From contig NZ_SCNV01000033.1 of assembly GCF_005503145.1 (NCBI RefSeq), positions 1 to 32,000 of the forward strand: a stretch of 32,000 nt of DNA, read 5' to 3'. A program made the translations under genes and the position numbers. Below the pieces are notes generated by a model. It searched no databases and had not been told where the DNA came from. It saw only the letters and a program-made list of their open reading frames with translations. The stretch's first letter is position 1; each line of letters starts with the position of its first letter. This DNA is from Burkholderia sp. 4M9327F10 (GTDB taxonomy: Bacteria > Pseudomonadota > Gammaproteobacteria > Burkholderiales > Burkholderiaceae). Shown here in pieces: positions 7,750-30,925 of this stretch.

Positions 7750-9153
7750 TCAATATGCGTTGCGGCCGACAAAGCCTTTCACCAAGGTGATCAACACGAT
7801 CTTGATGTCGAACCAGAACGACCAGTTGTGGATATAGAAGAGGTCGAACTTGACGCGCGCCTCCATCTTTTCGACCTTGTGTGTAGCGCCGCGGTAGCCG
7901 TTCACCTGGGCCCAGCCGGTAATGCCCGGCTTGATGCGGTAGCGGTGCATGTAGCCGTACACCAGATCCTTGTAGAGATCGTCGTGCTCGAGCGCATGCG
8001 GGCGCGGTCCCACCACCGACATTTGCCCCATCAGCACGTTGTAGAACTGCGGCAGCTCGTCGAGACTCGTGCGGCGCAGGAAGGCGCCGATCTTCGTCAC
8101 CCGCGCATCGCCCTGGGTCGCCTGGGTGAGCTGGCCGCCGTGTTCCGCATGCACGGTCATCGAGCGAAACTTGTAGATGTTGAAGGTGTGTCCGTCGATG
8201 CCCTTGCGCTTTTGCGCGAAGAACACGGGCCCGCGCGTGGTCGCCTTGATGGCGATGGCGATCGCCACAAATAGCGGCGTCAGCGCCAGCAGCGCTGCGA
8301 GTGCGAACAGGCGGTCGAACACCAGCTTTGGCCACATCTGGGGTGGCGAGATCGGCGTGCCGGTCAGGTTGATGGTCGTGAGACCCATGATGTCGACCAG
8401 CGAATGGCCGAACAGGGTCATGCTGCGCGTATCCGGTATGAAGCGCAGGTTGACGAAATCGTGCTGGAACGTGCGTGTGAAGCGGTAGATGGTGCGCTCT
8501 TCCGAGAGCGGCAGCGCGAGCCACACTTCGTTGATCTGCTCGGCGCGCACCTTGGCGGCGAACGCGTTCAGATCGTTCAGTACCGGCAGGCGGCTCATGC
8601 GCTCACCGGCCTCATGCGGCTCGCCGTCTTCGCCCGGCTCGAACTGGGTCGTGTCGAACACGCACACCGGCTTGAAGCCGGCTTGCGGCACCTGTTCGAG
8701 ATGCGCGAGCAGCATGCGTGCGAAGCCGGGCGAGCCGACCACGGCGACGCTGCGGTAGTTCAGGCCGCGCCGCCGCGCGAGGCGCAGCAGCAGATGGGCG
8801 GCGAGTTTGGTGGCGACGATCAGCACGCCGGAGATCAGCGTCGAATAGCCAAACCACAGGCGCGACATCGCATCCATGCGGTGCAGCGTGAACACCAGCA
8901 GCAGGCCTGTCACCACCACGAAGAACCAGCCTGCGCAGACGCGAGCGAGCATCTCGGGCAGCGACTTGCCGCGCCAGGTCTCGTAGATGCCGAAGACCGG
9001 GAACAGCAGCAGCACCAGCACGCAGTTGAACGCGATCAGGAGCCGCTCGGTATCCGCGAGTGCGCTTGCGGTGTCGAAGCGCATCCAGTGAGCGAGCAGG
9101 GCGCCCGCAATCACGAACAACGCGTCGAGGCAGCGCGCAATATTCCGCAGCAT
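7750..9153 (-). CDS. Priming polyprenyl-phosphate hexose-1-phosphate transferase (WcaJ/WbaP/BceB-type large PGT)
   Basis: 467 aa. N-terminal TM bundle, a central Rossmann-like region (YRSVAVVGSPGFA), and a C-terminal bacterial sugar-transferase domain: KLVFDRLFALAALLALTPLFVAIAIAIK...GPVFFAQKRKGIDGHTFNIYKFRSM...DELPQFYNVLMGQMSVVGPRP. Confidence 0.92.
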   Translation of the reverse strand: MLRNIARCLDALFVIAGALLAHWMRFDTASALADTERLLIAFNCVLVLLLFPVFGIYETWRGKSLPEMLARVCAGWFFVVVTGLLLVFTLHRMDAMSRLWFGYSTLISGVLIVATKLAAHLLLRLARRRGLNYRSVAVVGSPGFARMLLAHLEQVPQAGFKPVCVFDTTQFEPGEDGEPHEAGERMSRLPVLNDLNAFAAKVRAEQINEVWLALPLSEERTIYRFTRTFQHDFVNLRFIPDTRSMTLFGHSLVDIMGLTTINLTGTPISPPQMWPKLVFDRLFALAALLALTPLFVAIAIAIKATTRGPVFFAQKRKGIDGHTFNIYKFRSMTVHAEHGGQLTQATQGDARVTKIGAFLRRTSLDELPQFYNVLMGQMSVVGPRPHALEHDDLYKDLVYGYMHRYRIKPGITGWAQVNGYRGATHKVEKMEARVKFDLFYIHNWSFWFDIKIVLITLVKGFVGRNAY

Positions 9154-9182: not shown

Positions 9183-9917
9183 TCAGCTAACGGCTTCGGC
9201 CTGATGCAGCCGCGGCAGCAAGCGGTCGAATTCACGCTTGACGAGGCCGTAGCACTCGCATGCACGCGCTTCCAGACCCTCGCGGTCAAGCACCTTGATG
9301 TGGCCGCGGCTGTGATGGATCAGGCCTTCGTCGTGCAGCTTGCCGGCCGCTTCCGTGATGCCCTCGCGGCGCACCCCGAGCATGTCGGCGATCAGTTGCT
9401 GCGTGACGGTCAGCTCGTTCGAGGCGACCCGGTCCACTTCGATCAGCAGCCACCGGCACAGTTGCTTGTTGAGCGAGTGATGGCGGTTGCACGCGGCGGT
9501 CTGGGCGACCTGGGTGAGCAGTGCGTGCATGTACAGCATCATCAGGCGGCGCAGCAGGTCGGAGCGCAGGAACTGCTGCTTCAGGCACTGCGAGGTCATG
9601 CGGTAGGCGAAGCCGGCGCTTTGCACCTGCACGCGGTTCGGCATGGTTTCGCCGCCGGTCAGGACCGGCACGCCGGTCATGCCCTCGCGGCCGACTGCGG
9701 CGATCTCGACCGAGCTGCCGTCTTCCATCGTCGACAGCATGGAGATAATCGCGGTGGTCGGAAAGTAGACGTGATGGATGCGTTGTCCGGAGTCGCACAG
9801 GAGCTGTTCGGTGCGCAGATGGACGAGTTCGAGATGAGGGGCGAGTGCTTGCCACTCATGCGATGGCAGTGCGCCGAGCAAATGATTGCCGTGCAGATCG
9901 GATTGGAGCGTTAACAT
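9183..9917 (-). CDS. Crp/Fnr-family transcriptional regulator (cNMP-binding-like domain plus C-terminal HTH)
   Basis: ATG at 9917 with GAGGA 6 nt upstream; the longer GTG start at 9932 is less likely. Beta-roll region HHVYFPTTAIISMLSTMEDGSSVEIAAVGREGMTGV. HTH region TQQLIADMLGVRREGITEAAGKLHDEGLI. There is no N-terminal Cys cluster, so it is not an Fe-S FNR. It is the first gene of the export operon. Confidence 0.88.
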   Translation of the reverse strand: MLTLQSDLHGNHLLGALPSHEWQALAPHLELVHLRTEQLLCDSGQRIHHVYFPTTAIISMLSTMEDGSSVEIAAVGREGMTGVPVLTGGETMPNRVQVQSAGFAYRMTSQCLKQQFLRSDLLRRLMMLYMHALLTQVAQTAACNRHHSLNKQLCRWLLIEVDRVASNELTVTQQLIADMLGVRREGITEAAGKLHDEGLIHHSRGHIKVLDREGLEARACECYGLVKREFDRLLPRLHQAEAVS

Positions 9918-10419
9918 GATCGGTCCTCGCACGAAGCCGCTGATGCGGCTCGTTGGTCTTTTTACCCGTCGCTGCGTCCCTTGTGTATGCCGCCTGGCGA
10001 GCGGCTATGGACAAGCAGTGCGGGCCCCGTATGGCCTTTTTGCGCCGTCGGTTGTAGGGGTTGTTGGCGTCGGCGCCAGTGCTGCGCTTCTCACTTAGCG
10101 AGGACTGTGCCAAGGCGGTCGAAAGCAAGCACTGGTGCGGCGCAGCGAAGTATGGGATGGCGCGTTACGAGGCAAAACATGCATTTTTGTTTCATTTCTG
10201 CACGACGCCACATGGCTGCCCGGCGTTCCACACGGGCCACGCGAATTAATGCAAGTTATTGATCGGATGGGGTTAACCGCCGTTGACAGAGATTTTGGAT
10301 GAGGTATTTGCGGTTTGAAACGCAAGCTGTATAGCCGCTTGGCGCGCGTGTCCGGGATGACTCAGATTTGATTCATATGTGTTCAACAGGTTAGGTGGGC
10401 TGGCGCACGGAACAGCTTT

Positions 10420-10522: not shown

Positions 10523-13228
10523 TTAGCCGTAGAAGACCGGCATGCTGTGGTTGATCGCGCGGACTTCGCCGGCGGGTGCAGTGCGCTTTTCGTCGACGCT
10601 CATCGGTAGCAACGCGATCGTGCGCGACTCGCCGGGCGGCAGATGAAACCAGTTGTCGGCCGCGCGATAGTGCAGATCTGCAACGTTCACAAAACGCGAA
10701 AAGCGCTGTGCTTCGATCACCAGTTGCCAGCCATCGCAAGTGGCTTCGAGCGTCGCGCTGAGACCGGTGTCGCCGCGTTCGGCAACCCGCCGCTCCGGCA
10801 GATGAAAGGCCTGCGAACGAATCTGGCCGCTGCCCGCATCGCGCAGCGTGGCAATCGTCACATCGTGGGCCCGCGGGCCGAAACGATACGCATAAGTGAA
10901 ATCGAAGAACTGGCCGAGCACGTCCGCCGCGGCGAGGCGCCGGGTGCTGCGCGGGGCGAGTTCGAGCGCGATGGTTGCTGTTGCAACCTTTACGGCGCCG
11001 TCACGCAGACAGACCAGTTCAAGTTGCACAGGCAAGCTTTCGGCGGTCTCGTTGATGAGGTGCAGATCGAGGCCGTTGAGGCCCTCGTCGGTGATGACCA
11101 CCTGCACCGGGCGCCATGCCTGCGCGAGGGCGTGCCATGCGCTCTTGGGACGGCCGCTCGAGTCGACGATGCCCCAGCCGGCCCCGGGGCGCAGATCCTG
11201 AAACTGCCAGACCAGCCCGCCGCCGCACGGCGATCCGGCGCGGCGCCATTCGGCGAATACGTCCGTCATCAGCTCGGCCACCACGGCGCGCGAAAGCTCC
11301 AGGTAGCGCGGCGGATCTTCGTAACGCAGGCGGGCGGGATCGACGCCGTAGAGCGTGCTCAGGTAGTGTTCGCGGACGTCGTCGAAGTCCCAGCCGGCGC
11401 CCGGATCGCGCGGCACGGCGGCCTTCCAGCGCGGGTCGTGAACATGACTGGTACCAAGGTCGCGATGCAGCGAGGCGTCGTCCGGTACGTTGGCGAAGGC
11501 GAGGCATTCCGCCGCGAAGCGGACTTCGGCGCGCCGCACGTCGTCGAGCGGGCGCTGATAGGCGCCGACGCCGTAATAGTGGGTGATGCCGGTGCGGGTC
11601 GAAAACGGCCAGGCGCCGCCGCCCGGCGAATGGCTCACATAGTGAACATCCGGCCGCTCCTCGGCGGCGAGGGCCGGCAGGCATTCCGTGAAAAGTGGTT
11701 GTGCACGCATCGAAGGCGGCAGGCCGAGCATTGCCGCCTGCTGATCGATTTCGCTGCCGCCGCATAGCACGGCAAGCGCGGCAAAGCGGCGGGTGCGCGC
11801 GAGAAACTGGTGGGCCTCGCGGCGCACCGAGTCGATAAACGCCGCGTCGTTCGGGTAGTCGAAATTCGCAAAAGCGAAATCCTGCCAGATAAGGATTCCG
11901 TAGCGGTCGGCGAGCGCATAGAAGCGATCCGCTTCGTACACCATGGTGCCGCCCACGCGCAGCATGTTCAGGCCGGCATCGCGCGCGAGGGCAAATGCGT
12001 GTTCGAGCTGCTGCGCGGTGCCGGCGAGCGTGACGAGATCGGCGCTGGTCCAGCAGGCGCCGCGGCAGAACACGCGCACGCCGTTCACGCGCAAGGCGAA
12101 ACCTTCGCCGTCCGCGCCGCGGTCGACCTCGATGCTTCTGAAGCCCACCTCGCCGAGTTCAAAGCGTTCGCCGTCCAGTTCGAGGCAGACAGAATGTAGT
12201 GTGGGCGCGCCATGGGTATGCGGCCACCAGCGCTCGGCATGTGGCACACGCAGCTCGCCCGTGAGCGTGTAAGCATCGCTCCACACAAGAGCAGACGAAT
12301 GAAGCGTGCCGCAATGCAAGGTGGCTGGGGTTGCCGGGGTTGCAGTCACGTCTGCGCCATCCGGCACGGCGCCGCTCTGCGGGTGAAGGAAACGCAGCGT
12401 CAGCGACACGACGCCGTCGTCGCCGTCCACGCGGCTCGCGAGGTCGACCCGGTCGAAGGCCGCTGGGGCGTCGCCGAGCAGCTCGATCGGGCGCCACGGC
12501 CCGACCGCCTGGAGTGGCGGGCACCAGCCGGGCATGTGTCCGAGCAGGGTGGTGCGGACGTTGCGCAAGCCCGGCGGCGAGACGAGGCGAGGGCGCCAGC
12601 GGGCCCGCGAGCGGCGCGCGGCGAGCAGCGGCGCGAGCGAGCGGAAGCATAGGGCGAGCGTGGCCGTGCCGTTCAGTTCGAAGTCGAGATCGTGGGCGAC
12701 GAACATCGAATCCGAATCCAGCCGCTTGACGCCGTCGAGCCACACCTCGGAGAGGGTCGCGAGACCGTGCAGACGCAAGCGTTGCGGACCGTGCCCGGTG
12801 AGCGTGAGCCGGTACCAGTGATCGTCGAAGGCAAACGCCGGCGGATGGTCCGCATCGAGCCGGCCCGCGGCCCGCCACGCGGCGGCGACCGTTCCCGGCA
12901 CCTGAGCGGCGAGCCAGCCGTCGGCGGGCCAGTCGGCAGGCGACGCGCACGCGTCCGGGGACGTGCTCAGGCATTGCCAGCCGAGCTCGAGGGGACGCGG
13001 CCAGACCGTAGCCGCGGGGAGCGCGGACTCGCAGGCGCACACGGACTCGCACGCGGATTCGCACACGAGCGCACCCTGTGCCGCCGTTTCGCGCACCCGT
13101 TCAGGCGGGCTGATGGGCAAGGCGCGCACAGGGAGTCCGGTTGGTTGACGTATCAGAACGCGAGCGCGGCGAGCGGCGGCAAGGTCTCGTCGTACGCGCG
13201 CTCCAGCACGTCGAAGCAGTCGCTGCAC
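10523..13228 (-). CDS. Glycoside hydrolase family 2 (beta-mannosidase-like)
   Basis: Matches GH2 beta-mannosidase-type architecture: LELGWQC...GTVAAAW, VFCRGACWTSADL, MLRVGGTMVYEADRFYALADRYGILIWQDFAFANFDYP. The candidate acid/base region is LCGGSE and the candidate nucleophile region is FAAECLAFANVP. No obvious signal peptide. The start is uncertain: the ATG at 13228 overlaps the DUF1839 gene by 76 nt, and in-frame GTGs at 13129, 13096, 13066 and 13042 are alternatives. Confidence 0.85.
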   Translation of the reverse strand: MQRLLRRAGARVRRDLAAARRARVLIRQPTGLPVRALPISPPERVRETAAQGALVCESACESVCACESALPAATVWPRPLELGWQCLSTSPDACASPADWPADGWLAAQVPGTVAAAWRAAGRLDADHPPAFAFDDHWYRLTLTGHGPQRLRLHGLATLSEVWLDGVKRLDSDSMFVAHDLDFELNGTATLALCFRSLAPLLAARRSRARWRPRLVSPPGLRNVRTTLLGHMPGWCPPLQAVGPWRPIELLGDAPAAFDRVDLASRVDGDDGVVSLTLRFLHPQSGAVPDGADVTATPATPATLHCGTLHSSALVWSDAYTLTGELRVPHAERWWPHTHGAPTLHSVCLELDGERFELGEVGFRSIEVDRGADGEGFALRVNGVRVFCRGACWTSADLVTLAGTAQQLEHAFALARDAGLNMLRVGGTMVYEADRFYALADRYGILIWQDFAFANFDYPNDAAFIDSVRREAHQFLARTRRFAALAVLCGGSEIDQQAAMLGLPPSMRAQPLFTECLPALAAEERPDVHYVSHSPGGGAWPFSTRTGITHYYGVGAYQRPLDDVRRAEVRFAAECLAFANVPDDASLHRDLGTSHVHDPRWKAAVPRDPGAGWDFDDVREHYLSTLYGVDPARLRYEDPPRYLELSRAVVAELMTDVFAEWRRAGSPCGGGLVWQFQDLRPGAGWGIVDSSGRPKSAWHALAQAWRPVQVVITDEGLNGLDLHLINETAESLPVQLELVCLRDGAVKVATATIALELAPRSTRRLAAADVLGQFFDFTYAYRFGPRAHDVTIATLRDAGSGQIRSQAFHLPERRVAERGDTGLSATLEATCDGWQLVIEAQRFSRFVNVADLHYRAADNWFHLPPGESRTIALLPMSVDEKRTAPAGEVRAINHSMPVFYG
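13021..13075. repeat. Imperfect tandem 12-nt repeat (..GGAYTCGCA..), about 4 copies
   Basis: GGACTCGCA at 13025-13033 and 13043-13051, GGATTCGCA at 13055-13063, and a degenerate copy at 13066-13073. In the GH2 frame it encodes CESACESVCACES. Confidence 0.7.
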
Positions 13229-14169
13229 AGGTCGTGCCGCCCGCGTGCCATGGCCCGCACGAGACGGAACTGCATCACCATCGACTCCGAGGCGATCTTC
13301 TGCGCCGCGGCCGGAATCTGTGCGGGAATCTCAAAGCCTTGCACGGACAGCCACACCAGGTACTTCGAGAGAAACTCGAAGTTCGCGCCCAGTTGCCGCA
13401 TCAGGTTGAAGGAGTACAGATGGAAGAAGCCCTCGCCGCGTTCAAGCAGGGTCTCGAGCTGCTGCGGAAACTCGGCGCGCCACTGCGTGATCGGATTGCG
13501 CAGCGGGCGTCGGGCCAGATGGGTGCATAGCAGCTCCGCCGACGCCTCGGCGAGCGCGGTGCCTTGCAGCGCCGGGCGCACCTGTTTGGCGAACTCCACG
13601 TAGGGAAACAGCAGATCGGCCTGCCCCGTGAACTTCGGGAGCTTGCGAAACACGCCCTGGTAGTCTTCACCGTCCAGCACGTGATAGCCGGTGTTGTGGA
13701 AGTAGCCGAGACGCCGCGCGACGGGATCGATAAAGTCGATGCCGACCGTGGTTTTCGGATGCTCGCGGCGGTACGAGGTGGCGCGCGTGTTCGGCAGGTA
13801 GTAGCCGTCCACCTCGACCAGCACCGTATGGCCGCGCAGCGTTTGCGCCAGCACCCGCTCTTCCAGCGAATCGTAGATCGCCAGCTCCTGCACCTGGGTG
13901 CCGTAGAGCCGTTCGAGATCCTCGAGCGGGAATTTGAAGAACGTGAACTGGTCGCCCTCGAAGTCCTGCGTCGCGGTGAACGCGAAGGCGGCGCGCGGAT
14001 CGAGCCCGAAGCCGTGCAGCAGTTCGATCCACAGGTCCACGTAGCAGTTGGTCTCCTGCCAGACCCGGTCGCCCTGGTGCAGCGCATGCGGCACGTGGGA
14101 GCGCATCGGGCTGGCGGGGCCGGGTGCGCGAAGGGTGCCGTTGAGCGAGGTCGTCAGCGGGGGCGTCAT
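13153..14169 (-). CDS. DUF1839-like protein of unknown function
   Basis: Its ATG (14169-14167) overlaps the ligase TGA (14168-14166) as ATGA. The sequence HALHQGDRVWQETNCYVDLWIELLHGFGLDPRAAFAFT...DQFTFFKFPLEDLERLYG...VEVDGYYLP matches my memory of the DUF1839 family, but this needs HMM confirmation. An alternative start is the Met at 14106. Confidence 0.75.
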   Translation of the reverse strand: MTPPLTTSLNGTLRAPGPASPMRSHVPHALHQGDRVWQETNCYVDLWIELLHGFGLDPRAAFAFTATQDFEGDQFTFFKFPLEDLERLYGTQVQELAIYDSLEERVLAQTLRGHTVLVEVDGYYLPNTRATSYRREHPKTTVGIDFIDPVARRLGYFHNTGYHVLDGEDYQGVFRKLPKFTGQADLLFPYVEFAKQVRPALQGTALAEASAELLCTHLARRPLRNPITQWRAEFPQQLETLLERGEGFFHLYSFNLMRQLGANFEFLSKYLVWLSVQGFEIPAQIPAAAQKIASESMVMQFRLVRAMARGRHDLCSDCFDVLERAYDETLPPLAALAF

Positions 14170-15209
14170 GCGGCGCCTCCTGCGAGGCCCTGAGCGACGC
14201 GTGCCCTGGTATCGCCCCACAGCAGCGCCCGCACGTCGTCCGGCCAGACGTTGACGTCGAGACCGTGATGGCGGAACAGCGCGAGCGTGATGCGTTCCAT
14301 GCCGAAGCCGACGCAGCCGGTATGTGCGACCGAGCCATCTGCGCATTCGATCTTCCAGATCGCGCCGAAGTGATCCATGTGATAGTTGAACGACAGGCAG
14401 GCAGTCTTGCCGTCGGCGTTGGCGACCGGGATCAGCAACTCGAACTTGAGTGCCTGGGCGCGCTGGCTATCCGCGACGATCTTGCCGCCGCGGCCGAAGA
14501 ACGGGTCGTTGGCGAGGTCGACGTCGACCGGCAACTGCAGCATCGTCACGAGCGCCGAGCCGCGCTCGATCCACATCTGCCGGAACGCCATCACCTGTTC
14601 GGCATTGCCGAGGCGCACATATTCGCGCTGGCGGAACATCTGCATGCGCGCCGGATCGAGCGAGGGTTCGTGGCGAAAGCAATACGACAGCACGTCGATC
14701 GTGCGGCCTTCGGCGGGCAGCGGGCCGCGCCGCGCCATCACCGGATAGATCGGGTAGCAGGCGGCCGGCGTCAGCACCACCCGGGTGGGTTGCTGCTGCG
14801 CCATCCATGCGTCGCTGCGCTCGTCGTCGCGCTCGCTCATCGCATCGTCGAGCGCGCGCAACAGGCGCTGGTGGCCCATGTCGTTGCCGCAGAACGAATG
14901 GATCGTGCCGGCGAGGTTGGGAAAGCTCTTCAGGTATTCGCTGTCCTCGAAGTCGGTGCGGCGCATCGCGGGCGGAAAGCGCAGCACTTCCGGCTGCTGG
15001 TCGGCGCCCAGATGGGTGATGGCCACATTCAGGCGCTCGACCACGTCTTCGAACACCTGGCTGCGGCCGTACAGGCCGTTTTCGCCGGTATCGATCAGGA
15101 TGCCCTTCGCCAGCAGTTCATCGCGAAAGCCCGGCGCGGCGTTGCTCCCGGAGTCGGCTTGTGCTGCCTGCGCGGCGGCAAGGGCGGCGGTGTCGGTCAT
15201 CGTGTTCAT
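14166..15209 (-). CDS. Amino acid:[carrier protein] ligase, a truncated class II (methanogenic-type SerRS-like) aminoacyl-tRNA-synthetase homolog without a tRNA-binding domain
   Basis: 347 aa. Class II motif 2 is SYCFRHEPSLDPARMQMFRQREYVRLG and motif 3 is GCVGFGMERITLALFRH. Cys151, Glu181 and Cys299 sit where methanogenic-type SerRS places its Zn ligands. It is too short to carry the SerRS N-terminal coiled-coil tRNA-binding arm. Confidence 0.85.
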   Translation of the reverse strand: MNTMTDTAALAAAQAAQADSGSNAAPGFRDELLAKGILIDTGENGLYGRSQVFEDVVERLNVAITHLGADQQPEVLRFPPAMRRTDFEDSEYLKSFPNLAGTIHSFCGNDMGHQRLLRALDDAMSERDDERSDAWMAQQQPTRVVLTPAACYPIYPVMARRGPLPAEGRTIDVLSYCFRHEPSLDPARMQMFRQREYVRLGNAEQVMAFRQMWIERGSALVTMLQLPVDVDLANDPFFGRGGKIVADSQRAQALKFELLIPVANADGKTACLSFNYHMDHFGAIWKIECADGSVAHTGCVGFGMERITLALFRHHGLDVNVWPDDVRALLWGDTRARVAQGLAGGAA

Positions 15210-15210
15210 G

Positions 15211-16515
15211 TCAGGCTCTCCCCGGTGCGCCCGGACGCTGCGCGAGCAACAGGCTCGCGGTGTTTTGCGCGATGCGGTCGTTGTTGATCATCAGCGGGGC
15301 CGAGTACAGGTCGCGCAGATGCCGCCCCACGCTGTACTCGGTGCCGTTCTTGTAGCCGGCCATGCCGCAGATCATCAGGACTTCGTGGACCACCTGCAGG
15401 GCGGTGGTGGAAATGCTGGTCTTCAGCGTGTTCATGTCGGAGGCGAAGCCAAGCAGCGCGGACAGCGGCACATCGGCCTGGCACGCGCCCAGTTTGGCGT
15501 GGTGCGCGGCGCGGGCGGCGTCGAGCGCGATGGCAAGGCGCGCCTGCATCATCTGCAGCAGGCCCACGGCCTCGGCCAGGCGCAAGCCTGCCGGTGGCAC
15601 CGAGCCGGGTTTGGCACGCGCCTGGGCGCGGAAAAACGCCTTGGCGCGGTTCACCGCGTCGGTGGCGATGCCGGTCCAGACGGCGGCCCACAGCGTGTGC
15701 GAGACCGGCAGCATGGTCTGGTCGGCGATCTCGGCAAACGGCGTCGGCAGGATCTGTTCGGCACGGCCCGTCGCGACGAGACGAAAGCCTTCGCTGCAGG
15801 TGCCGCGCATGCCCATCGAATCCCAGCCGCCGCGTTTTTCCAGGGTGGTCTCGTCGCGCAGTGCGACGATCATTACCTGGTCGGCTGCGGCGGACTCGGC
15901 AGTGCGCCGCGCGGTGACGAGAATGCCATCGGCCTGGGCGCCGTACGAAATGGTGGGCGCCAGTTTTTCGATGCGCAGACGCTCAGCGTCGATTTCGACC
16001 GAGCACGCGCTGGTACGCATATTGCCGCCGATCGTTTCCTCCGAGGTCGCGGAGGCGAGCAGCCATTGCTTGTCGACCAGCTCCGCGAGCAGCGCGCAGT
16101 GCCACGGCGAGGCGCTGCCATGCGCTTCGATGCAGGCGACCTGGATCTGATGCATCGCATACACCATCGCAGTCGAGGCGCAGCCTTGCGCGAGGATTTC
16201 GCAGATGGCGGCCACATCGGCGAGCGGCAGTCCGGCGCCGCCGAAGGCCGCCGGCACCAGTGCGGAGAGCAGCCGTTCGCGGCGCAACGCGTCGAAGGCT
16301 TCGGTGGGAAAGCGTGCGTCGCGATCCACGGCGTCCGCATGTTGCGCGGCGATCTGGGCGACGCGCTGGGCGGCGGCGCGCCAGCCGGCTTCCGGCTCGA
16401 CCGCGGATAACGGCGTCGGCGCCGAGGCCGGCGCGGACGTCGCAGGAGCGGCCGCGGCGGTTTCAGCGCGTGCACCGTCGAGCGCGACGGTGTCATGCAG
16501 CAGGGGCGCGTTCAT
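15211..16515 (-). CDS. Acyl-CoA dehydrogenase-family flavoprotein (probably acting on a carrier-protein-bound substrate)
   Basis: 434 aa. ACAD N, middle and C domains are recognisable: FPTEAFDALRRERLLSALVP, SEETIGGNMRTS, GWDSMGMRGTCSEGF, ICGMAGYKNGTEYSVGRHLRDL. Its stop lies 1 nt before the ligase ATG, and its ATG overlaps the ACP stop as ATGA at 16512-16515. It has an Ala/Pro-rich N-terminal extension of about 45 aa. Confidence 0.88.
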   Translation of the reverse strand: MNAPLLHDTVALDGARAETAAAAPATSAPASAPTPLSAVEPEAGWRAAAQRVAQIAAQHADAVDRDARFPTEAFDALRRERLLSALVPAAFGGAGLPLADVAAICEILAQGCASTAMVYAMHQIQVACIEAHGSASPWHCALLAELVDKQWLLASATSEETIGGNMRTSACSVEIDAERLRIEKLAPTISYGAQADGILVTARRTAESAAADQVMIVALRDETTLEKRGGWDSMGMRGTCSEGFRLVATGRAEQILPTPFAEIADQTMLPVSHTLWAAVWTGIATDAVNRAKAFFRAQARAKPGSVPPAGLRLAEAVGLLQMMQARLAIALDAARAAHHAKLGACQADVPLSALLGFASDMNTLKTSISTTALQVVHEVLMICGMAGYKNGTEYSVGRHLRDLYSAPLMINNDRIAQNTASLLLAQRPGAPGRA

Positions 16516-16763
16516 GCCGCCGCCTTTGCCTGTTGGAGTTCGGTCACCGCGGCAGCAAGCGAATCGATGCTCGAAAAGAGCCGGCGCGTGAGCATGCGGT
16601 CGGGAATCTCGATGTCGAATTCGTCTTCGATCGCCAGCATCAGATGCACGGTTGCGAGCGACGAGAGGCCTGCTGCGTAGAGATCGGCGTCATCCGCGAG
16701 GGTCTCGGGCGCAACGTCGAGACGTGCGGACTCGGAAAGAATGCGTCGCAATGCTGTTTTCAT
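16512..16763 (-). CDS. Acyl/aminoacyl carrier protein (phosphopantetheine-binding)
   Basis: 83 aa. DADLYAAGLSSLATVHLMLAIEDEF is a PP-attachment-site-like motif (GLSSL in place of G-x-DS-L). The protein is acidic and helical-looking. GAGGG lies 11 nt upstream of the ATG at 16763. Confidence 0.85.
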   Translation of the reverse strand: MKTALRRILSESARLDVAPETLADDADLYAAGLSSLATVHLMLAIEDEFDIEIPDRMLTRRLFSSIDSLAAAVTELQQAKAAA

Positions 16764-17020
16764 GGGAAGGCGCCCCCTCGGAATGATGTCGCTAAGCCGC
16801 TTCTGGTTGGAGTCGTCGCGCCGTCGAGGCCGCGGCGGTCGCGTTGCCGGTTGCTGCGAGCCCTGCAGGTTCGGACAGTCGGTGCCGGCTGACCGTATTT
16901 AACTAATCGCGACGCAGCATCGTCGGTGCGCTTCCGCACGGAGATTCAAGGGTCGGTAGCGGTAACGTGCAGTCATGGCGGCGGGCATGCCCCGTCGAGT
17001 GAATCGCTAGGGGAAACCTG
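16764..17020. promoter_or_regulatory. Divergent intergenic region between the carrier-protein cassette (-) and the GNAT/wzy/GT operon (+)
   Basis: 257 bp with no ORF and an AT-richer patch, CGTATTTAACTAATCG, near 16893-16908. It must hold promoters for both divergent units; the elements were not resolved. Confidence 0.5.
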
Positions 17021-17554
17021 ATGAACTGGAAAACGCTCGAATTCGAGCAGTTCACGGCGCGCGAGCTGTATCTGGTCATGCGTGCGCGGAGTGCGGTGTT
17101 CATAGTCGAACAGTCCCATGTGTGCCTCGATGCCGATGGGCACGACGAGCAGGCATTGCACGTTTTCGCGGTGGAAGACATGTCCCGGCCGATGCCGGTG
17201 ATGGCGTACGCGCGGATTCAGCCAGGCGACCTGGAGGACCCGGAGGTGGTGATCGACAAGGTGCTGACGAGTCCCGCGCGGCGCGGCGACGGTACGGCGG
17301 AAATGCTGATCGAGCGGGTACTGCAGGCGATTGCCGAGCGCTGGGCCGGGCGTCTCGTGCGGGTGACCGCGCCGGTCAGCCTGCGCGGCTTCTATGAACA
17401 GTTCGGCTTTCGCAAGACCGAAGGACCGTTTCTCGAACATGGCGTGCCGTTCATCGGCCTGACCTGCCAGATGCGGGGTACGCGCAGCGGGTTCGGCAGT
17501 TGGCGCCGCGAGCGCAGTGCGGCGCCGGTCGCCAGCACATTCGAGCTGCTTTAA
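17021..17554 (+). CDS. elaA: GNAT-family N-acetyltransferase, ElaA-like
   Basis: AGGGGA lies 7 nt upstream of the ATG. WKTLEFEQFTARELYLVMRARSAVFIVEQSHVCLDADGHDEQALHVF...VMAYARI...FYEQFGFRKTEGPFLEHGVPFIGL aligns along its whole length with my recollection of E. coli ElaA. Confidence 0.8.
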   Translation: MNWKTLEFEQFTARELYLVMRARSAVFIVEQSHVCLDADGHDEQALHVFAVEDMSRPMPVMAYARIQPGDLEDPEVVIDKVLTSPARRGDGTAEMLIERVLQAIAERWAGRLVRVTAPVSLRGFYEQFGFRKTEGPFLEHGVPFIGLTCQMRGTRSGFGSWRRERSAAPVASTFELL

Positions 17555-17577: not shown

Positions 17578-19092
17578 ATGATCCATGCTTCGGGTTTGCC
17601 GTTACCACGCGCCGCGCGGGATGCCGGCGCGCGGCGCTCGGCGGGGCGCCTCGCTGGGCCGGTGGCGCTGCCGGTCGGCATGTTCGTGGTCACGCTGTTG
17701 CTGATCGTCGCGCACCAGGGCAAGGTGCTGGAGCTCTCGTTCTCCGTGATGTCGACCGTGATCGCCTTTTATCTGTACCGGCGCTATCCCGCTCATTACC
17801 TCGGTTTCGTCTGCTGGCTCTACTTTCTGACGCCCGAGGTGCGGCGTTTCGCGGATTTTTTCAACGGCGCGTTTAATCCGAAGAGTCCGGTGATGCTCGC
17901 GCCGCTGCTGGCCGCGGCGATTTCAGGGCTCTCGGTGCTCGCGCACCATCGCATGCTGGGCCAGCGCCGCGCGTTGCCGCTCATGCTGATGCTGGTCGCA
18001 ATTTTCTATGGGTTTGTGATCGGCCTCGTGCGGGTCGGTCTCGCGCCGGCGGCATACACGCTGGTCAACTGGATCCTGCCGGTCTCGATGGGAGTGCATC
18101 TGATCGCGACCTGGCAGGAGTATCCGGTCTATCACCGGGTACTCCTGAAGACCTTTGTCTATGGCACGTTCGTGCTGGGCGCCTATGGCATCTATCAGTT
18201 CATTTCACCGCCGCCGTGGACTGTGTTCTGGATGGTGGGCTCGAACATGGGCACTTCGGAGGGCACGCCGGTGCCGTTCGGCCTGCGTATTTCCAGCACG
18301 ATGAACTCGGCCGGTCCGTTCGCCATCACGATTATGGCCGGCCTGCTGATGTCGCTGGCCGCACGCGGCAAGACGCGCCTCGCCTCGGTTGCAGTGGGCG
18401 TGCCGGCGCTGATGTTCACCTCGGTGCGCACGGCCTGGGGCGGCATGGTGATCGGTCTCATTTATCCGCTTGCGATGCTGGACGGAAAAAGCCGTTTGCG
18501 CCTGCTTGCCGGCGTGATCTGCCTGGTGGGGCTCTGCATGCCGTTGACGATGATCGATGCGGTCTCCGGACGCCTGATGACGCGTCTCGAATCGATCACA
18601 AACCTGAACCAGGACAACAGCTATCAGGCGCGCTCGGTCTTCTACACGAACTTCGTCTCGATCGCCTTGACCGATATTGCCGGGCAGGGAATCGGCTCAG
18701 TCGGCCTCGGCGCCAAGCTCGCCGACGACCCGAGCCAGGTCAGCGGCTCGATCGACAGCGGCATCGTCGAAGTGTGCATCGTGATGGGGTGGCCGGGTAC
18801 CTTGCTGTATGGCACGGGAGTGTTCGTACTGATCTGGCGTGCGTTTATCGCGAGCCTTGCGCAGTCGAAGGACCGCTTCGCGATTTCCGGCGTCGGCGTC
18901 GCGCTTTCCATCTTTGCCATGATGGTCATGTCGAATACCCTGCAGGGCGAGCCGGGCATGGTGTTTGTAATCGGCGTGCTGATGCCCGTAATCGGCGTGC
19001 GTTATGCGCGGCAAAAGCGGGACGGCTTGCTGCCGCCGGCTGCCTCTGCGGCCACCGTTGGCGTTGCGGTTCCGGTACGGGTGCGGCCATGA
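17578..19092 (+). CDS. wzy: O-antigen ligase/polymerase-family membrane protein (Wzy-like EPS polymerase)
   Basis: ATG at 17578 inside ORF 17500-19092. About 10-12 TM segments. A Wzy_C-like loop is present (SSTMNSAGPFAITIMAGLL...FTSVRTAWGGMVIGL). Lies 23 nt after the GNAT gene. Confidence 0.8.
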   Translation: MIHASGLPLPRAARDAGARRSAGRLAGPVALPVGMFVVTLLLIVAHQGKVLELSFSVMSTVIAFYLYRRYPAHYLGFVCWLYFLTPEVRRFADFFNGAFNPKSPVMLAPLLAAAISGLSVLAHHRMLGQRRALPLMLMLVAIFYGFVIGLVRVGLAPAAYTLVNWILPVSMGVHLIATWQEYPVYHRVLLKTFVYGTFVLGAYGIYQFISPPPWTVFWMVGSNMGTSEGTPVPFGLRISSTMNSAGPFAITIMAGLLMSLAARGKTRLASVAVGVPALMFTSVRTAWGGMVIGLIYPLAMLDGKSRLRLLAGVICLVGLCMPLTMIDAVSGRLMTRLESITNLNQDNSYQARSVFYTNFVSIALTDIAGQGIGSVGLGAKLADDPSQVSGSIDSGIVEVCIVMGWPGTLLYGTGVFVLIWRAFIASLAQSKDRFAISGVGVALSIFAMMVMSNTLQGEPGMVFVIGVLMPVIGVRYARQKRDGLLPPAASAATVGVAVPVRVRP

Positions 19093-20282
19093 GGGGTGAG
19101 GCGCTGCGTGTGCTGATCGTCACACATGTGGTCCGCAACAACGACGGGCAGGGACGGGTGAATTACGAAGTGGCGCGAGCGGCGCTTGCCGCCGGCCATC
19201 ACGTGACGATCGTGGCGTCGGAGATGGCTCGCGATCTGCTTGCCTGTCCGCGTCTGCGTTTTGTCGAGATCGCGGAGAGTGCGCTGCCCACCCGGCTTGC
19301 CAAGTATCAGATATTCGCACTACGTAGCGGTGCGTGGATCAGGGCGCACCGCGCCGAGTTCGATGTAGTGCATGTAAACGGTTTTATCGCGTGGGCCAGG
19401 GCCGATGTCAACACCGTGCACTTCGTGCATGACGGCTGGTACCGCTGCGGCTTCTATCCGTTTCGCGTGGCGGGCGGGTGGTATCCGGCTTATCAGGTCG
19501 CCTATACGCGGCTCAATGCGCTGTGCGAGAAGTGGGCGTTTCGCCACTCGCGCGTCGTGGTGCCGGTGTCGCAGAAGGTCGGCGCGGAAGTGCGCGCGCT
19601 CGGCATCGATGCAGGCACCATGCAGGTGATCCATAACGGTGTCGACGCGGACGAGTTTGCGCCGGGGGTGGCGACGCGTGAGGCGTTCGGTCTGCCGGCT
19701 GAGCCGTTCATGTTGCTGTTTGCCGGCGATCTGCGGGTATCGCGCAAGAACCTCGATGCGGTGTTGCATGCGCTCGTTTCGACGCCGCCTCATGTCCATC
19801 TCGCGGTAGCCGGGATTTTGCGCAACAGCCCTTACCCGGCGCTTGCCGCGACGCTCGGCGTCGGTGCGCGGGTCCATTTTCTCGACCTTGTGCAGGATAT
19901 GCCTCGCCTGATGCGTTCTGTCGATGCGTTTGTGTTTCCTTCGCGCTATGAGGCGATGAGTCTCGTGATGCTCGAGGCCCTGGCGGCGGCGCTGCCTGTC
20001 GTGACGGTAGCGACTGCGGGCGGCGCGGAAGTGATCGATAGCCGCTGTGGCGTAGTGCTCGATAGCCCCGAAGACATCGCGGGTCTCGCGCAGGCGATAG
20101 TTCATCTTGCACAGCACCCCATGGAGGCGCGCGCGATGGGCGCTGCCGCGCGCGAGCTGGCGCAGTCGCTCACATGGCAGAGCATGGCGGCGCGTTATCT
20201 GTCGCTCTACGAAGACCTCGCCAGCAGGCGCGCCAGTTCCGGCGCGCGTCTGTCCGGCGCTGCCGTGTCGGCCAAATCATGA
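19089..20282 (+). CDS. Glycosyltransferase family 4
   Basis: Its ATG overlaps the wzy TGA as ATGA at 19089-19092. N-terminus LRVLIVTHVVRNNDGQGRVNYEVARAALAAGHHV. C-terminal signature FVFPSRYEAMSLVMLEALAAALPVVTVATAGGAEVI. Confidence 0.9.
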   Translation: MRGEALRVLIVTHVVRNNDGQGRVNYEVARAALAAGHHVTIVASEMARDLLACPRLRFVEIAESALPTRLAKYQIFALRSGAWIRAHRAEFDVVHVNGFIAWARADVNTVHFVHDGWYRCGFYPFRVAGGWYPAYQVAYTRLNALCEKWAFRHSRVVVPVSQKVGAEVRALGIDAGTMQVIHNGVDADEFAPGVATREAFGLPAEPFMLLFAGDLRVSRKNLDAVLHALVSTPPHVHLAVAGILRNSPYPALAATLGVGARVHFLDLVQDMPRLMRSVDAFVFPSRYEAMSLVMLEALAAALPVVTVATAGGAEVIDSRCGVVLDSPEDIAGLAQAIVHLAQHPMEARAMGAAARELAQSLTWQSMAARYLSLYEDLASRRASSGARLSGAAVSAKS

Positions 20283-25104: not shown

Positions 25105-25137
25105 CTCAGTTTGCCCTCAATTCGCCCTCAGTTCGCC
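25105..25137. repeat. Three tandem 11-nt repeats: CTCAGTTTGCC / CTCAATTCGCC / CTCAGTTCGCC
   Basis: Read directly. A related copy, CTCAGTTAGTCC, lies at 25072-25083. The wzx stop codon (25128-25130) is inside the third unit. Confidence 0.8.
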
Positions 25138-28749: not shown

Positions 28750-29047
28750 GTCGGACTCGTGCTGTGCTGCTCTTGGGTCGCTGGTGTGCGTGAGGCACGG
28801 GCAGGCGCTCGCACAACCACGGGCTGGGTGATGGTCCCGATTGTGCAACGCGGCTGCCGTGCACAGTGTGGGCGGCCGTACAGATAGGCCGAGCCGCGTT
28901 TGATGTAATTCCGACAAATACCTGACAGACCCGATTTCGTACTCGCACATTCGCAGAGGCGAACTGCGGCGACGCCGATCCGACCGCGCCATGGACTCTC
29001 GTTCCCAGGCGCCTCGATCCGGTTACGCTCTCGCACAAGGACACAAA
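28750..29047. promoter_or_regulatory. Divergent intergenic region between the acyltransferase/wzx unit (-) and the hydrolase/methyltransferase unit (+)
   Basis: 298 bp with no credible ORF. Contains the inverted repeat TGTGCA-N12-TGCACA at 28842-28865. Confidence 0.45.
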
Positions 29048-30925
29048 ATGAAACCTGTCGTCTTCGACGGCTGTGTTGGCTGGCTTCATCCAGCCGAGGG
29101 GCAACATGGGGTGGTCCTGTGCAATCCGTTCGGCTATGACGCGCTTTGCACCCACCGCGGCTGGCGAGCGCTCGCGGAACGTCTCGCGGCAGCGGGCCTG
29201 CCGGTCTTGCGCTTCGACTATCCGGGCAGCGGCGACTCGCTCGGAGATGAAGAGGAGCCGGGCCGGGTGGCGGCGTGGCTCGACAGCATCGGCGCGGCGA
29301 TGCGCTTTCTGAGGCAGTCGGCCGGGGTGACCCGGGTGTCGCTATGCGGCTTGCGCCTGGGCGGCACGCTGGCGGCGCTCGCGGCGCAGCGTTCGGGTGA
29401 GGTGGACGCTCTGGTGCTGCTCTCGCCGGCGCTCTCGGGTAAGAACTATCTGCGCGAATTGCGGGCGCATCGGCAGAGCTGGCTGAGCACGCCTGCGGGT
29501 ATGAACGCCGAGCCGATTGCGGATTCTGCCGCGTATGTCGAAGCGTTCGGTTTTGGCCTGCATGGCGAGGACATTGCGCAACTTGGCTCGGTCGATCTAC
29601 GTGCGGACACTACCGCTCCTGCGCGCCGCGTGCTGATGCTCGCGGCGAACGATCAGAGCCGCGCCGCGGCACTGGTGGCGCACTACCGCGCGAACGGGGT
29701 ACAGGTCGAACAGCAAGGGTTCGACGAGGCCGACCGGTTTCTGCTCGAGGCCCTGTACAGCGAAGAGCCGGTACAGGCCTTTGCCGCGCTCACGCAGTGG
29801 CTGGCTGAGACGCCTGCGCCTGAGGCGGGCGCTGTTGCCGCAGTTCATGGCGATGCTTGTGCCGATGAATCGTCCACGGGGTCTTCCACCGAGTCTTCCA
29901 CTTTAAGGCTCGCAAGCGAACACGCGGTCGAACGTCCGATTGTCTTCGGCGCTTACTTCGGCATCTACTGTCAACCCGATGTCCCTTGCGAGGGGGCGCC
30001 TGCCGTGTTGTTCCTGAATACCGGTGCGAGCCACCATATCGGTGACGGACGGATCTTTGTGCTGTTCGCGCGCCGTCTCGCGGCGCAGGGGATCGCTTCG
30101 CTGCGCATGGACCTGGGCGGTCTCGGCGACAGCACGCCGCTCGCCCAGGCGGTGACGCTCGACACCATCTATTCGCAAGCCTCGTGTGCTGATGCGATGG
30201 CCGGCGCCGACTGGCTGGCCAGCAGCGGACACGAACGCATCGTCACCTTTGGGGTGTGCGGCGGCGCGTTTAACGGCCTGCATGCATGCGCGAATCATCC
30301 ACGTATCGCGGGCTGCTTCGGCGTGAACCTGCAGAAGTTCATCTGGGATGGCGCGGCGCGTACGCCGGGCACCGCAGGCCTCGCATCGAACCGTGTATTG
30401 CGGCGCTCGGCCATGAGTCTTGCCAAGTGGCTGCAGGTGTTGCGCGGCGAGTCGTCGCTATGGCGCGTGATACGCGGTCTCGCGCAACGGCTCGGCCGCA
30501 GCCTGTTCGTGCGCGCAGCCGATCTGCTCGAAGCAGGGCTCGGAATTTCCATTGCACCGAACGAGGCGAAACGTCTCTTGCAGCGCATCGATGCGAAGGG
30601 GGCGCAAGTGCGGCTCGTATTCGGCGAGTACGACCTTGGGCTCGACGAACTGAAGATCGAGTTCGGCGCGCAGTTGCGCGGGCTGCGCCGTTTTTCGCAG
30701 GTGCGCGCCACGACCTTGCCGAAGCTCGATCACGCGCTGTTCACGCGCGCGGCGCGCGAGGCGGCGATGACCGACGCGCAGCAGTGGCTATTCGAGTGCC
30801 TTGTCGCGGCGCCGGCGCCGCACGGCGAAGTGCCGCATCCGGCGCCGCTCAGTGTGGCGGTTTGCGCGGCCGTGCCGGATGGATCGGCTCTGTGTGCTGC
30901 CGGTCTCGATCAGGCGCGTCAATGA
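29048..30925 (+). CDS. Fusion of two alpha/beta-hydrolase-fold domains
   Basis: AAGGA lies 7 nt upstream of the ATG. N-half: GVVLCNPFGYDAL...LPVLRFDYPGSGDS...SLCGLRLGGTLAA. A Ser/Thr-rich linker (DESSTGSSTESST) follows. C-half: PAVLFLNTGASHHIGDGRIFV...LRMDLGGLGDS...VTFGVCGGAFNG...LPKLDHALF. Confidence 0.8.
   Translation: MKPVVFDGCVGWLHPAEGQHGVVLCNPFGYDALCTHRGWRALAERLAAAGLPVLRFDYPGSGDSLGDEEEPGRVAAWLDSIGAAMRFLRQSAGVTRVSLCGLRLGGTLAALAAQRSGEVDALVLLSPALSGKNYLRELRAHRQSWLSTPAGMNAEPIADSAAYVEAFGFGLHGEDIAQLGSVDLRADTTAPARRVLMLAANDQSRAAALVAHYRANGVQVEQQGFDEADRFLLEALYSEEPVQAFAALTQWLAETPAPEAGAVAAVHGDACADESSTGSSTESSTLRLASEHAVERPIVFGAYFGIYCQPDVPCEGAPAVLFLNTGASHHIGDGRIFVLFARRLAAQGIASLRMDLGGLGDSTPLAQAVTLDTIYSQASCADAMAGADWLASSGHERIVTFGVCGGAFNGLHACANHPRIAGCFGVNLQKFIWDGAARTPGTAGLASNRVLRRSAMSLAKWLQVLRGESSLWRVIRGLAQRLGRSLFVRAADLLEAGLGISIAPNEAKRLLQRIDAKGAQVRLVFGEYDLGLDELKIEFGAQLRGLRRFSQVRATTLPKLDHALFTRAAREAAMTDAQQWLFECLVAAPAPHGEVPHPAPLSVAVCAAVPDGSALCAAGLDQARQ

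Follow-up and report, generated by a model that had tools for sequence, protein, structure and literature searches.

We analysed a gene module in a 32,000-nucleotide stretch of the Burkholderia sp. 4M9327F10 genome (contig NZ_SCNV01000033.1, positions 1 to 32,000; hereafter the window), in which genes for a small carrier protein, a flavoenzyme of the acyl-CoA dehydrogenase (ACAD) fold, a homologue of the seryl-tRNA synthetase (SerRS) catalytic core and a DUF1839 protein lie within a polysaccharide locus, joined by a gene for a glycoside hydrolase family 2 (GH2)-like protein and, further off, by one for a tandem α/β-hydrolase that we call abH2. Our preferred reading, which we regard as modestly probable, is that this module of five to six genes supplies an amino-acid-derived acyl group for a biofilm exopolysaccharide of the Bep/Bec type, regulated by cyclic diguanylate (c-di-GMP). 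The four cassette open reading frames (ORFs) all lie on the minus strand, from 16763 down to 13153, and re-reading the sequence returned the coordinates and tight junctions given in a preliminary description of this DNA: the stop of the acyl carrier protein (ACP) gene and the start of the ACAD gene share an ATGA at 16515-16512, the ACAD stop (TGA, 15213-15211) is separated by one base from the ligase ATG at 15209, and the ligase stop and DUF1839 start share a second ATGA at 14169-14166 (Table 1). The annotated start of DUF1839 varies, being placed at 14169 in some annotations and at 14106 in others. Pfam and NCBIfam profile searches bore out the four protein identities of that description, which had treated the four genes as the whole unit and ended the operon at 13153; the GH2-like gene, which starts 23 nt past the DUF1839 stop, and abH2 had both been missed.

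The 347-residue protein is predicted to be an amino acid:carrier-protein ligase that derives from SerRS and acts independently of tRNA, and its cognate carrier is encoded nearby. It scored 531 bits against the NF005479 equivalog model (cut-off 357), aligning over residues 11-332 of 347 and profile positions 5-317 of 318, and matched the ligase Bll0957 in the PDB (3mey, 5e-84; 4h2w, 7e-86) with approximately 55% identity. Five of its residues (C151, E181, C299, motif-2 R179 and motif-3 R306) were invariant in 51 ligase homologues of 32-56% identity and align with the same motifs in Bll0957, and we take C151, E181 and C299 to be the Zn ligands from published structures. Likeness to type-2 SerRS proteins (518-527 aa) was confined to SerRS residues ~311-505, which form the catalytic core, and the N-terminal tRNA-binding arm was absent, so that the SerRS-like motifs, Cys/Glu/Cys set and missing arm previously read from the sequence all stand. 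Homologues carry the label 'seryl-tRNA synthetase' in some source annotations, which would fit an ordinary or auxiliary SerRS whose neighbours are unrelated fatty-acid metabolism genes. This explanation is refuted and keeps practically no credence: in addition to lacking the tRNA-binding arm, the protein scored far under the cut-offs of the SerRS models (NF002120, 60.6 bits against 611; TIGR00415, 38.7 bits against 489.55), and orthologous enzymes have been solved in complex with carrier proteins. The earlier view that the enzyme does not charge tRNA was therefore supported.

The carrier is encoded two genes upstream of the ligase and matched PF00550 (2e-10), the NCBIfam equivalog PRK07081 (128 bits, cut-off 72), PDB 2jq4 (Atu2571; 1.6e-18) and the carrier chain of 4h2w (1.5e-18), its phosphopantetheine serine lying within a GLSSLA motif; the match to DltC was weak (29 bits, cut-off 68). 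The Bll0957 and Atu2573/Atu2571 ligases reportedly charge carrier proteins (work of Mocibob et al. in 2010 and 2013; PDB 3mey, 4h2s-4h2y, 2jq4), and these studies are said to have left the fate of the aminoacyl-carrier protein open. These systems share with the window ligase the family model and the Zn-ligand and class II motif residues, their carrier is orthologous, and an ACAD gene likewise lies between carrier and ligase; at the ligase level the window shows no difference from them. The loaded amino acid is most likely Gly or Ala by analogy with these characterised orthologues, as given in a review table, and the alanine genes of a Priestia cluster (described below) point the same way. Since bll0958, which adjoins bll0957, encodes an acyl-CoA dehydrogenase (PMC10888616), the characterised enzymes derive from the same gene order. 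Both bll0957 and bll0958 were upregulated approximately 3-fold in a Bradyrhizobium diazoefficiens phaR mutant under microaerobiosis (PMC10888616), which may hint at how rhizobia regulate the module.

Conservation of the module was surveyed in 80 species-level genome loci found with a 13-sequence ligase alignment, onto each of which the window proteins were mapped; at least 594 species match two short ligase patterns. The order ACP-ACAD-ligase-DUF1839-GH2 was kept in approximately 72 of the 80 loci, in β- and α-proteobacteria (Paraburkholderia, Caballeronia, Burkholderia, Cupriavidus, Ralstonia, Mycetohabitans, Azospirillum, Methylobacterium, Rhizobium, Brucella, Roseibium and Mesorhizobium), in myxobacterial metagenome-assembled genomes and in Steroidobacter. 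The flavoenzyme gene was syntenic in 77 loci and the GH2 gene in 72.

For the glycan context of these loci we used profiles made from the window's own assembly genes, covering the families GT4, GT2, Bac_transf, Wza, Wzc, Wzx, Wzy, ManC and AT3. As the 'Wzc' profile also matches ParA-type plasmid partition ATPases, lone 'Wzc' matches in loci L059, L064, L065 and L083 were not counted as glycan genes. Two or more of these families were present within 10 kb in some 41 of the 80 loci, which represent no fewer than eight distinct architectures, including those of the Paraburkholderia/Caballeronia type, the B. cepacia complex, Cupriavidus/Ralstonia, Methylobacterium, Roseibium/Stappia/Breoghania, Methylovirgula, Rhizobium/Pseudaminobacter and Lichenicola. 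The window itself has polysaccharide genes on both flanks, as the preliminary description stated, with Wzc, Wza, a GT2 and Bac_transf on one side and Wzy, glycosyltransferases and Wzx on the other. With the actinobacterial clusters and bec mutants described below, these counts support a functional tie between cassette and polysaccharide locus, the adjacency being no coincidence; the linkage that the neighbour survey was to establish does recur, in a pattern from which roughly one locus in three is missing.

The fifth gene of the operon encodes a predicted GH2 enzyme of β-mannosidase type, judged by its relation to the PDB β-mannosidases 5n6u and 2je8 (1e-40) and by the retention of both glutamates: the putative acid/base E460 (in GGSE) and nucleophile E541 (in AEC) were invariant in 72/72 orthologues. 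No signal peptide was found on this protein. The sixth partner, abH2, was found by clustering the genes that neighbour the ligase, and is a recurrent family of ~530-660 aa proteins within the esterase/aminopeptidase-like α/β-hydrolase families that seems to be uncharacterised. The N-terminal half of abH2 has an Arg at the nucleophile position and the C-terminal half has an invariant G-x-C-x-G motif with an Asp-His pair (C423, D580 and H581 invariant in 31/31 members). In 33 of the 80 proteobacterial loci the abH2 gene was found no more than 10 kb from the ligase, mostly directly after GH2; the window copy stands at the outer edge of the polysaccharide locus, 12 kb away from the cassette. Further copies were seen at L087 14573-16549, L089 14305-15900, L093 6268-7956, L094 10992-12764 and L095 18054-19769. 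A Cys nucleophile in this fold is reminiscent of dienelactone hydrolase and polyhydroxyalkanoate synthase.

These hydrolase-like partners would also suit a module for glycan remodelling or recycling, in which GH2 and the hydrolases degrade an aminoacylated or otherwise substituted oligosaccharide in the cytoplasm and the ligase and carrier salvage the amino acid. The intact catalytic residues of GH2, the membership of abH2 in esterase/aminopeptidase-like families and the presence of an α-galactosidase, a GH1 enzyme and M20 deacylases among the Azospirillum neighbours are in keeping with it. However, the loading of a carrier at the cost of ATP is typical of biosynthesis, the module has no uptake transporter among its conserved partners, and the actinobacterial versions sit among glycosyltransferases and flippases without any GH2; we consider recycling very unlikely.

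Outside the proteobacteria, the ligase, carrier and abH2 were present in all four actinobacterial glycan clusters inspected, from Tsukamurella and from three further Mycobacteriales (Mycolicibacterium fortuitum, Rhodococcus and Segniliparus), in the company of a priming transferase, GT4s and Wzx/Wzy or of GH16 and GT2. On a Tsukamurella plasmid, ligase and carrier lie among a polyprenyl glycosylphosphotransferase, a phosphopantetheinyl transferase, four glycosyltransferases and a flippase, and a 531-aa 'hypothetical protein' there is a member of abH2 with its G-V-C-S-G kept; the Cys motif was retained in the abH2 of every actinobacterial cluster inspected. DUF1839 and GH2 were absent from all four clusters and the flavoenzyme was found only in Rhodococcus, which leaves ligase, carrier and abH2 as the constant trio. 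In the Rhodococcus locus (L094 12761-20948) the order is carrier, flavoenzyme, ligase, abH2, three proteins without a Pfam match, GH16 and GT2, so that GH16, another glycosidase family, occupies the place that GH2 has in proteobacteria. These observations invite a wider proposal, which we make tentatively and think more probably wrong than right: that ligase, carrier and abH2 are the core of a cross-phylum system for glycan aminoacylation to which proteobacteria add flavoenzyme, DUF1839 and GH2, and that Bep/Bec polymers bear base-labile glycyl, alanyl or oxidised aminoacyl esters that were missed in alkali.

A genetic connection to biofilm comes from the Bec and Bep loci. By our own mapping, made through locus L087 and the two locus tags printed in PMC5507470, the B. 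pseudomallei becA-R cluster contains the whole module as becF (carrier), becG (flavoenzyme), becH (ligase), becI (DUF1839), becJ (GH2) and becK (abH2). The bec genes other than becF, becM and becO were recovered as biofilm-deficient transposon mutants of B. pseudomallei, and colonies of becG::T24, an insertion in the ACAD gene, were smooth (PMC5507470). In B. cenocepacia the cassette is enclosed by berB (Bcam1342) and berA (Bcam1349), beside bepA-L, and the window Crp gene is 49-50% identical to the Crp gene that adjoins Bac_transf, at the berA position, in B. cepacia complex loci; the function of BerA is described in PMC3584217. The becA-R and bepA-L/berA/berB loci have Wza, Wzc, Bac_transf, a BerA-like Crp, GNAT, GT4s and the cassette in common with the window, which differs from them in its glycosyltransferases (three GT4, two GT2, one GT9), in having an AT3-SGNH acyltransferase, in the 12 kb between its abH2 and cassette and in that no BerB-like activator was seen in it.

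To ask which component might take the aminoacyl group off the carrier is to turn to DUF1839, which matched PF08893 with 438 bits over profile positions 3-312 of 313. Its AlphaFold2 model (mean predicted local distance difference test score, pLDDT, 81; predicted template modelling score, pTM, 0.81) has an N-terminal α/β domain followed by a helical bundle, and in a Foldseek search of the PDB it matched AziU2/U3 (2e-7), CtaG (1e-6) and CcbD (1e-4), with template modelling (TM) scores of 0.50-0.58 over ~335-385 columns for the entries 8gs1, 7wuw, 9quz and 7yn2; phytochelatin synthase and other papain-fold enzymes rank next. Among the DUF1839 copies of the 80 loci, C42, located where the first long helix of the model begins, was kept in 71/74 and H158 in 74/74, and several acidic residues were invariant. 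The C42-H158 spacing, a sequence distance and not a Cys-His geometry, is 116 residues and that of CtaG (Cys11-His128) is 117; a 2023 paper proposes a C-(T/S)-H arrangement for DUF1839 instead (PMC10318531).

Published work describes CtaG as a papain-like ligase that makes amide bonds between carrier-protein-bound substrates, groups AsbE and BtrH as CtaG homologues that use carrier-bound acyl donors, has CcbD acylating an amino sugar with a carrier-bound prolyl group in lincosamide biosynthesis, and calls AziU2/U3 similar to CtaG in fold and functionally unrelated (PMC12865890). Because CtaG and CcbD, among its nearest solved folds, transfer carrier-bound acyl groups and because its Cys and His are conserved, DUF1839 is the natural candidate for taking the aminoacyl group off the carrier, as far as a modelled fold can indicate. 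With CtaG (closthioamide), CcbD (celesticetin/lincosamide), BtrH (butirosin) and AsbE (petrobactin) it shares the papain-like plus helical domain architecture, an N-terminal Cys at a helix start with a His ~116 residues on, and a gene position beside a carrier and its loading enzyme, although no sequence similarity between DUF1839 and this class was detectable. It differs from them in that its donor would be loaded by an aminoacyl-tRNA synthetase (aaRS) homologue and not by an adenylation domain, ATP-grasp or CoA-ligase type enzyme, in that its acceptor may be a hydroxyl where theirs is an amine, and in its context of envelope and biofilm biology as against antibiotic pathways.

The three exceptions to C42 carry Arg, and all are in-cassette copies from Cupriavidus and Ralstonia with a second, Cys-bearing copy nearby: in L033 (10937-11923 and 15797-16687), and likewise in L041 and L043, the Arg-type copy lies in the cassette and the Cys-type copy a few kb off on the opposite strand. 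By analogy, such pairs may be catalytic and non-catalytic partners like those of the AziU2/AziU3 heterodimer. The putative catalytic Cys was also absent from 7/36 metagenomic DUF1839 homologues, and on the Caballeronia sp. NK8 chromosome (L096 8001-9023) a lone Cys-less DUF1839, reading 'EGVAP' for 'ETNCY', stands between GNAT/GT4 and Crp/Bac_transf. The genes for carrier, flavoenzyme, ligase and GH2 are gone from this locus, which looks like a decayed one of the Paraburkholderia type, and the strain also has an intact ligase on a plasmid. Loss of the Cys from an intact cassette was considered and rejected: the Cys is missing only where there is a second copy or in the decayed, ligase-less locus, and it is therefore kept wherever the cassette is intact.

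The flavoenzyme was less readily placed. Only Acyl-CoA_dh_N exceeded its Pfam cut-off (9e-13); the C-terminal ACAD domain, at 18.9 bits, fell short of its cut-off (22.4), and no middle domain was reported in the Pfam scan. In the alignment, the position of the catalytic Glu (Y-E/T-G-T of the short-chain acyl-CoA dehydrogenase (SCAD) 7p98) is occupied by Ile/Asn. A true ACAD was rejected on these grounds, the domain set being incomplete and the Glu base lacking. The family profile matched true short-chain ACADs in the PDB (5e-23, for SCAD, and 1e-21, with butyryl-CoA dehydrogenase scoring alike) and the amino-sugar N-oxygenases DnmZ (1.5e-22), ORF36 (8e-22) and KijD3 (4e-20) with similar scores, so that dehydrogenase and N-oxygenase are not separated by them, and the prolyl-ACP dehydrogenase AnaB with 4e-11. 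From these similarities the enzyme may be an aminoacyl-ACP dehydrogenase, an oxidase or an N-oxygenase. AnaB, RedW/PigA and ZmaI, ACAD-fold enzymes that act on carrier-tethered amino acids, share its fold and its gene position beside carrier and loader; similarity to all of these enzymes and to the N-oxygenases is low, and the window enzyme differs from them in lacking the canonical ACAD Glu. Unlike the ZmaI systems, the window has no ZmaG/FkbK-type partner dehydrogenase, and no sign of a zwittermicin ZmaJ/H/G/I pathway was found in it, there being no protein of the adenylation-domain or 3-hydroxyacyl-CoA dehydrogenase families. The flavin oxidation of the loaded amino acid suggested in the preliminary description is thus unproven.

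Put together, these components, which appear to be cytoplasmic, would act in four steps. The Zn-dependent ligase, as shown for its orthologues, would adenylate a small amino acid and then thioesterify it to the phosphopantetheine of the carrier. The flavoenzyme might then alter the tethered amino acid by dehydrogenation, oxidation or N-oxygenation, a step we propose with little confidence. The acyl group would pass to Cys42 of DUF1839, as the fold and the conserved Cys/His suggest, and from there to a nucleophile on a sugar-containing acceptor, likely a lipid-linked repeat unit at the cytoplasmic face; the Cys-type abH2 may transfer as well, or in place of DUF1839. Finally, the GH2-like enzyme would process a β-glycoside that is a substrate or product of the acyl-transfer chemistry.

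Several observations weigh against the supply of an acyl group to the exopolysaccharide. The Bep polymer of B. cenocepacia H111 was determined as [3)-α-Gal-(1-3)-α-Glc-(1-3)-α-Gal-(1-3)-α-Man-(1-]n, with neither an amino sugar nor any substituent (PMC7084887); all known relatives of the DUF1839 fold form amides, not esters; and a cytoplasmic β-mannosidase-like enzyme has no explained role in such a pathway. In about 28 of the 80 loci no glycan genes were recognised within 10 kb, Azospirillum has the six genes as a tight self-contained operon, the Caballeronia grimmiae module stands alone as five genes, and a Priestia plasmid joins ACP, ACAD and ligase to alanine and peptide genes. An insertion in becF, the carrier gene, was not among the mutants of the biofilm screen (PMC5507470), and insertions in the bec operon may possibly be polar. 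The published chemistry is tempered by its method, as the extraction of Bep took 3 h in 0.3 M NaOH and its analysis was done in sodium deuteroxide (NaOD; PMC7084887). Such treatment removes esters, and the absence of a substituent is therefore not decisive; as Bep has no amino sugar an amide is excluded for it, and the linkage would need to be a base-labile ester. The reading of the loaded amino acid as a polysaccharide substituent, already put forward in the preliminary description, is accordingly favoured by its locus and by the structural rationale from DUF1839 and is left without an amino-acid substituent on the related Bep (PMC7084887).

The same facts bear on an alternative in which the product is a small molecule of its own (for instance a signal, an antimetabolite or a glycoside derived from an amino acid), the polymer stays unmodified, and the module lies in polysaccharide loci only through a shared c-di-GMP/BerA biofilm regulon. 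The third of loci in which the five or six genes lack nearby glycan genes, the bare Bep structure and the small-molecule pathways to which CtaG, CcbD, AziU2/U3, AsbE and BtrH all belong are consistent with it, as is the Firmicute locus on a Priestia megaterium plasmid (L088 7139-15686), whose transporter, ATP-grasp ligase and thioesterase resemble those of a small peptide pathway. There acpS precedes the carrier-flavoenzyme-ligase trio, with a D-Ala-D-Ala ligase gene upstream, and the trio is followed by a DMT transporter, an L-amino-acid-ligase-like ATP-grasp protein, a type II thioesterase, the alanine permease AlaP and an alanine racemase; it looks like a pathway to a small alanine-derived peptide. 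The supply of aminoacyl-carrier is therefore modular and not limited to glycans. Against a small-molecule product, embedding in glycosyltransferase operons recurs across two phyla in unrelated architectures, the proteobacterial module has no exporter and no further peptide- or polyketide-building enzymes, and bec insertions in the cassette share the smooth, low-biofilm phenotype of insertions in polysaccharide assembly genes (PMC5507470). On this evidence we consider a small-molecule product unlikely.

Carrier-protein-dependent aminoacylation of envelope glycopolymers is an established process, exemplified by DltABCD in the D-alanylation of teichoic acids and by AlmEFG in the glycinylation of Vibrio lipid A. 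The logic is shared with the window, in that an ATP-dependent ligase charges a small carrier with Ala or Gly and an envelope glycopolymer or glycolipid is decorated. The Dlt and Alm ligases belong to the ANL superfamily, whereas the window ligase is a class II aaRS core; and in place of an MBOAT protein (DltB), DltD or an LpxL-type transferase, none of which was found among the window proteins, the candidate transferases are a Cys-dependent papain-fold protein and an α/β-hydrolase-fold protein. The Alm precedent, with its carrier-borne glycine moved onto Vibrio lipid A, also lends itself to a second destination for the aminoacyl group, namely another envelope glycoconjugate or a lipid carrier or primer (lipid A, lipopolysaccharide (LPS) core, a glycolipid or a reducing-end anchor). 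In line with this, Bac_transf is the most constant neighbour of the module, directly adjacent in Cupriavidus and in actinobacterial clusters, and the Bep repeat unit was found unsubstituted. However, neither an LpxL/AlmG-like acyltransferase nor an MBOAT was found among the window proteins, and LPS profiles were unchanged in the bep mutants of Fazli et al., which were not cassette mutants (PMC3584217). We judge a destination of this kind to be quite unlikely, and retain exopolysaccharide acylation as the preferred reading.

The preliminary statement that no such route had been described was too strong, given the established Dlt and Alm systems and two prior publications. The order ACP-ACAD-ligase-DUF1839-GH2 is in the supplement of Ozhelvaci and Steczkiewicz 2023, who place DUF1839 among papain-like proteins and guess at fatty-acid/phospholipid processing, or glycan processing 'in an acyl-CoA-dependent manner' (PMC10318531), and becF-K were named in 2017 within a biofilm polysaccharide cluster, without interpretation (PMC5507470). 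Ligase and carrier belong, as ordinary members, to a known family, and the system as a whole reveals no new principle. What appears to be new is the membership of GH2 and abH2 in the unit, the tie of ligase, carrier and abH2 to glycan clusters across phyla, the model-based placing of DUF1839 in the CtaG/CcbD class, and the recognition that the published Bep chemistry could not show a labile ester.

Table 1. Features of the window, with strand and basis of assignment.
Feature	Position	Strand	Basis
Aminoacyl carrier protein, 83 aa, Atu2571 orthologue	16512..16763	-	PF00550, PRK07081, PDB 2jq4/4h2w
ACAD-fold flavoprotein, 434 aa, without the Glu of medium-chain (MCAD) and SCAD-type enzymes	15211..16515	-	Acyl-CoA_dh_N
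Amino acid:[carrier protein] ligase (predicted), 347 aa, truncated methanogen-type SerRS core	14166..15209	-	NF005479, PDB Bll0957
DUF1839, 338 aa, predicted carrier-protein-dependent transacylase	13153..14169	-	PF08893, AlphaFold2 model, Foldseek
GH2 β-mannosidase-like protein, 868 aa, operon gene 5	10523..13129	-	PDB β-mannosidases, synteny
Tandem α/β-hydrolase abH2, 644 aa, BecK family	28991..30925	+	family HMM 1e-202
GNAT acetyltransferase, divergent from cassette, resembles Bcam1341/bepL	17021..17554	+	Pfam Acetyltransf_10/7/1
Divergent intergenic region ACP/GNAT, 257 bp, regulatory role presumed	16764..17020	.	sequence
Crp/Fnr-family regulator, probable BerA (Bcam1349) orthologue	9183..9932	-	HTH_Crp_2, cNMP_binding
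Bac_transf priming transferase	7750-9153	-	Pfam, gene calls
GT2	6786-7730	-	Pfam, gene calls
Wza	5486-6745	-	Pfam, gene calls
Wzc	3049-5460	-	Pfam, gene calls
Wzy	17578-19092	+	Pfam, gene calls
GT4	19104-20282	+	Pfam, gene calls
GT4	20279-21457	+	Pfam, gene calls
GT4	21643-22761	+	Pfam, gene calls
GT2	22761-23711	+	Pfam, gene calls
GT9	23775-25004	+	Pfam, gene calls
Wzx	25128-26588	-	Pfam, gene calls
AT3-SGNH acyltransferase	26590-28992	-	Pfam, gene calls

Upstream of the cassette, the gene directly divergent from it was found to be that for GNAT and not wzy, as had been thought. The shared divergent promoter proposed in the preliminary description is still an inference, as neither a sigma-70 promoter consensus nor an inverted repeat was found in the 257-bp region. 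The GNAT gene was present in 23 of the 80 loci, in Burkholderiaceae only, and its product is a possible accessory of the cassette; Bcam1341, which it resembles, is annotated as COG2153 (PMC3584217). Terminator-like signals around the cassette were matches at the level of shuffled sequence only, and sigma-54-like matches across the window were at chance level (16 observed, 17.5 expected). One site of the sigma-54 -24/-12 type with a single mismatch (TGGCACAGTCCTCGCT) was noted at 10097-10112 on the minus strand, ~165 nt upstream of the Crp/BerA-like gene; the berA gene of B. cenocepacia is RpoN/BerB-dependent, and no BerB-like sigma-54 activator was seen in the window. The abH2 gene is flanked by the gene for an AT3-SGNH fusion (800 aa, of the polysaccharide O-acyltransferase type) and by one for a class I methyltransferase (~30286-31761, plus strand), so that conventional routes probably O-acylate and/or methylate the polymer of the locus as well. 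Beyond wzc, at 504-3022 on the plus strand, there are two long ORFs (416 and 400 aa) and an overlapping minus-strand ORF, all without a Pfam match.

The purpose of the charged carrier has been shown by nobody in the literature that we searched. The locus and its relatives point to polysaccharide synthesis, with DUF1839 and abH2 as two concrete candidates for transfer, and as the same genes occur in the Bep/Bec clusters of B. cenocepacia and B. pseudomallei, which are genetically tractable pathogens, the question is testable. If no substituent is present, the module would be a self-contained pathway that shares no more than its regulation with the biofilm genes. If a labile amino-acid ester does exist, it would represent a third route of envelope-polymer aminoacylation after Dlt and Alm, and a published polysaccharide structure would be revised; the ester could also lie behind the insolubility, the charge or the immune properties of polymers in the biofilm matrix, and the amino acid:[carrier protein] ligases would have their first physiological role.

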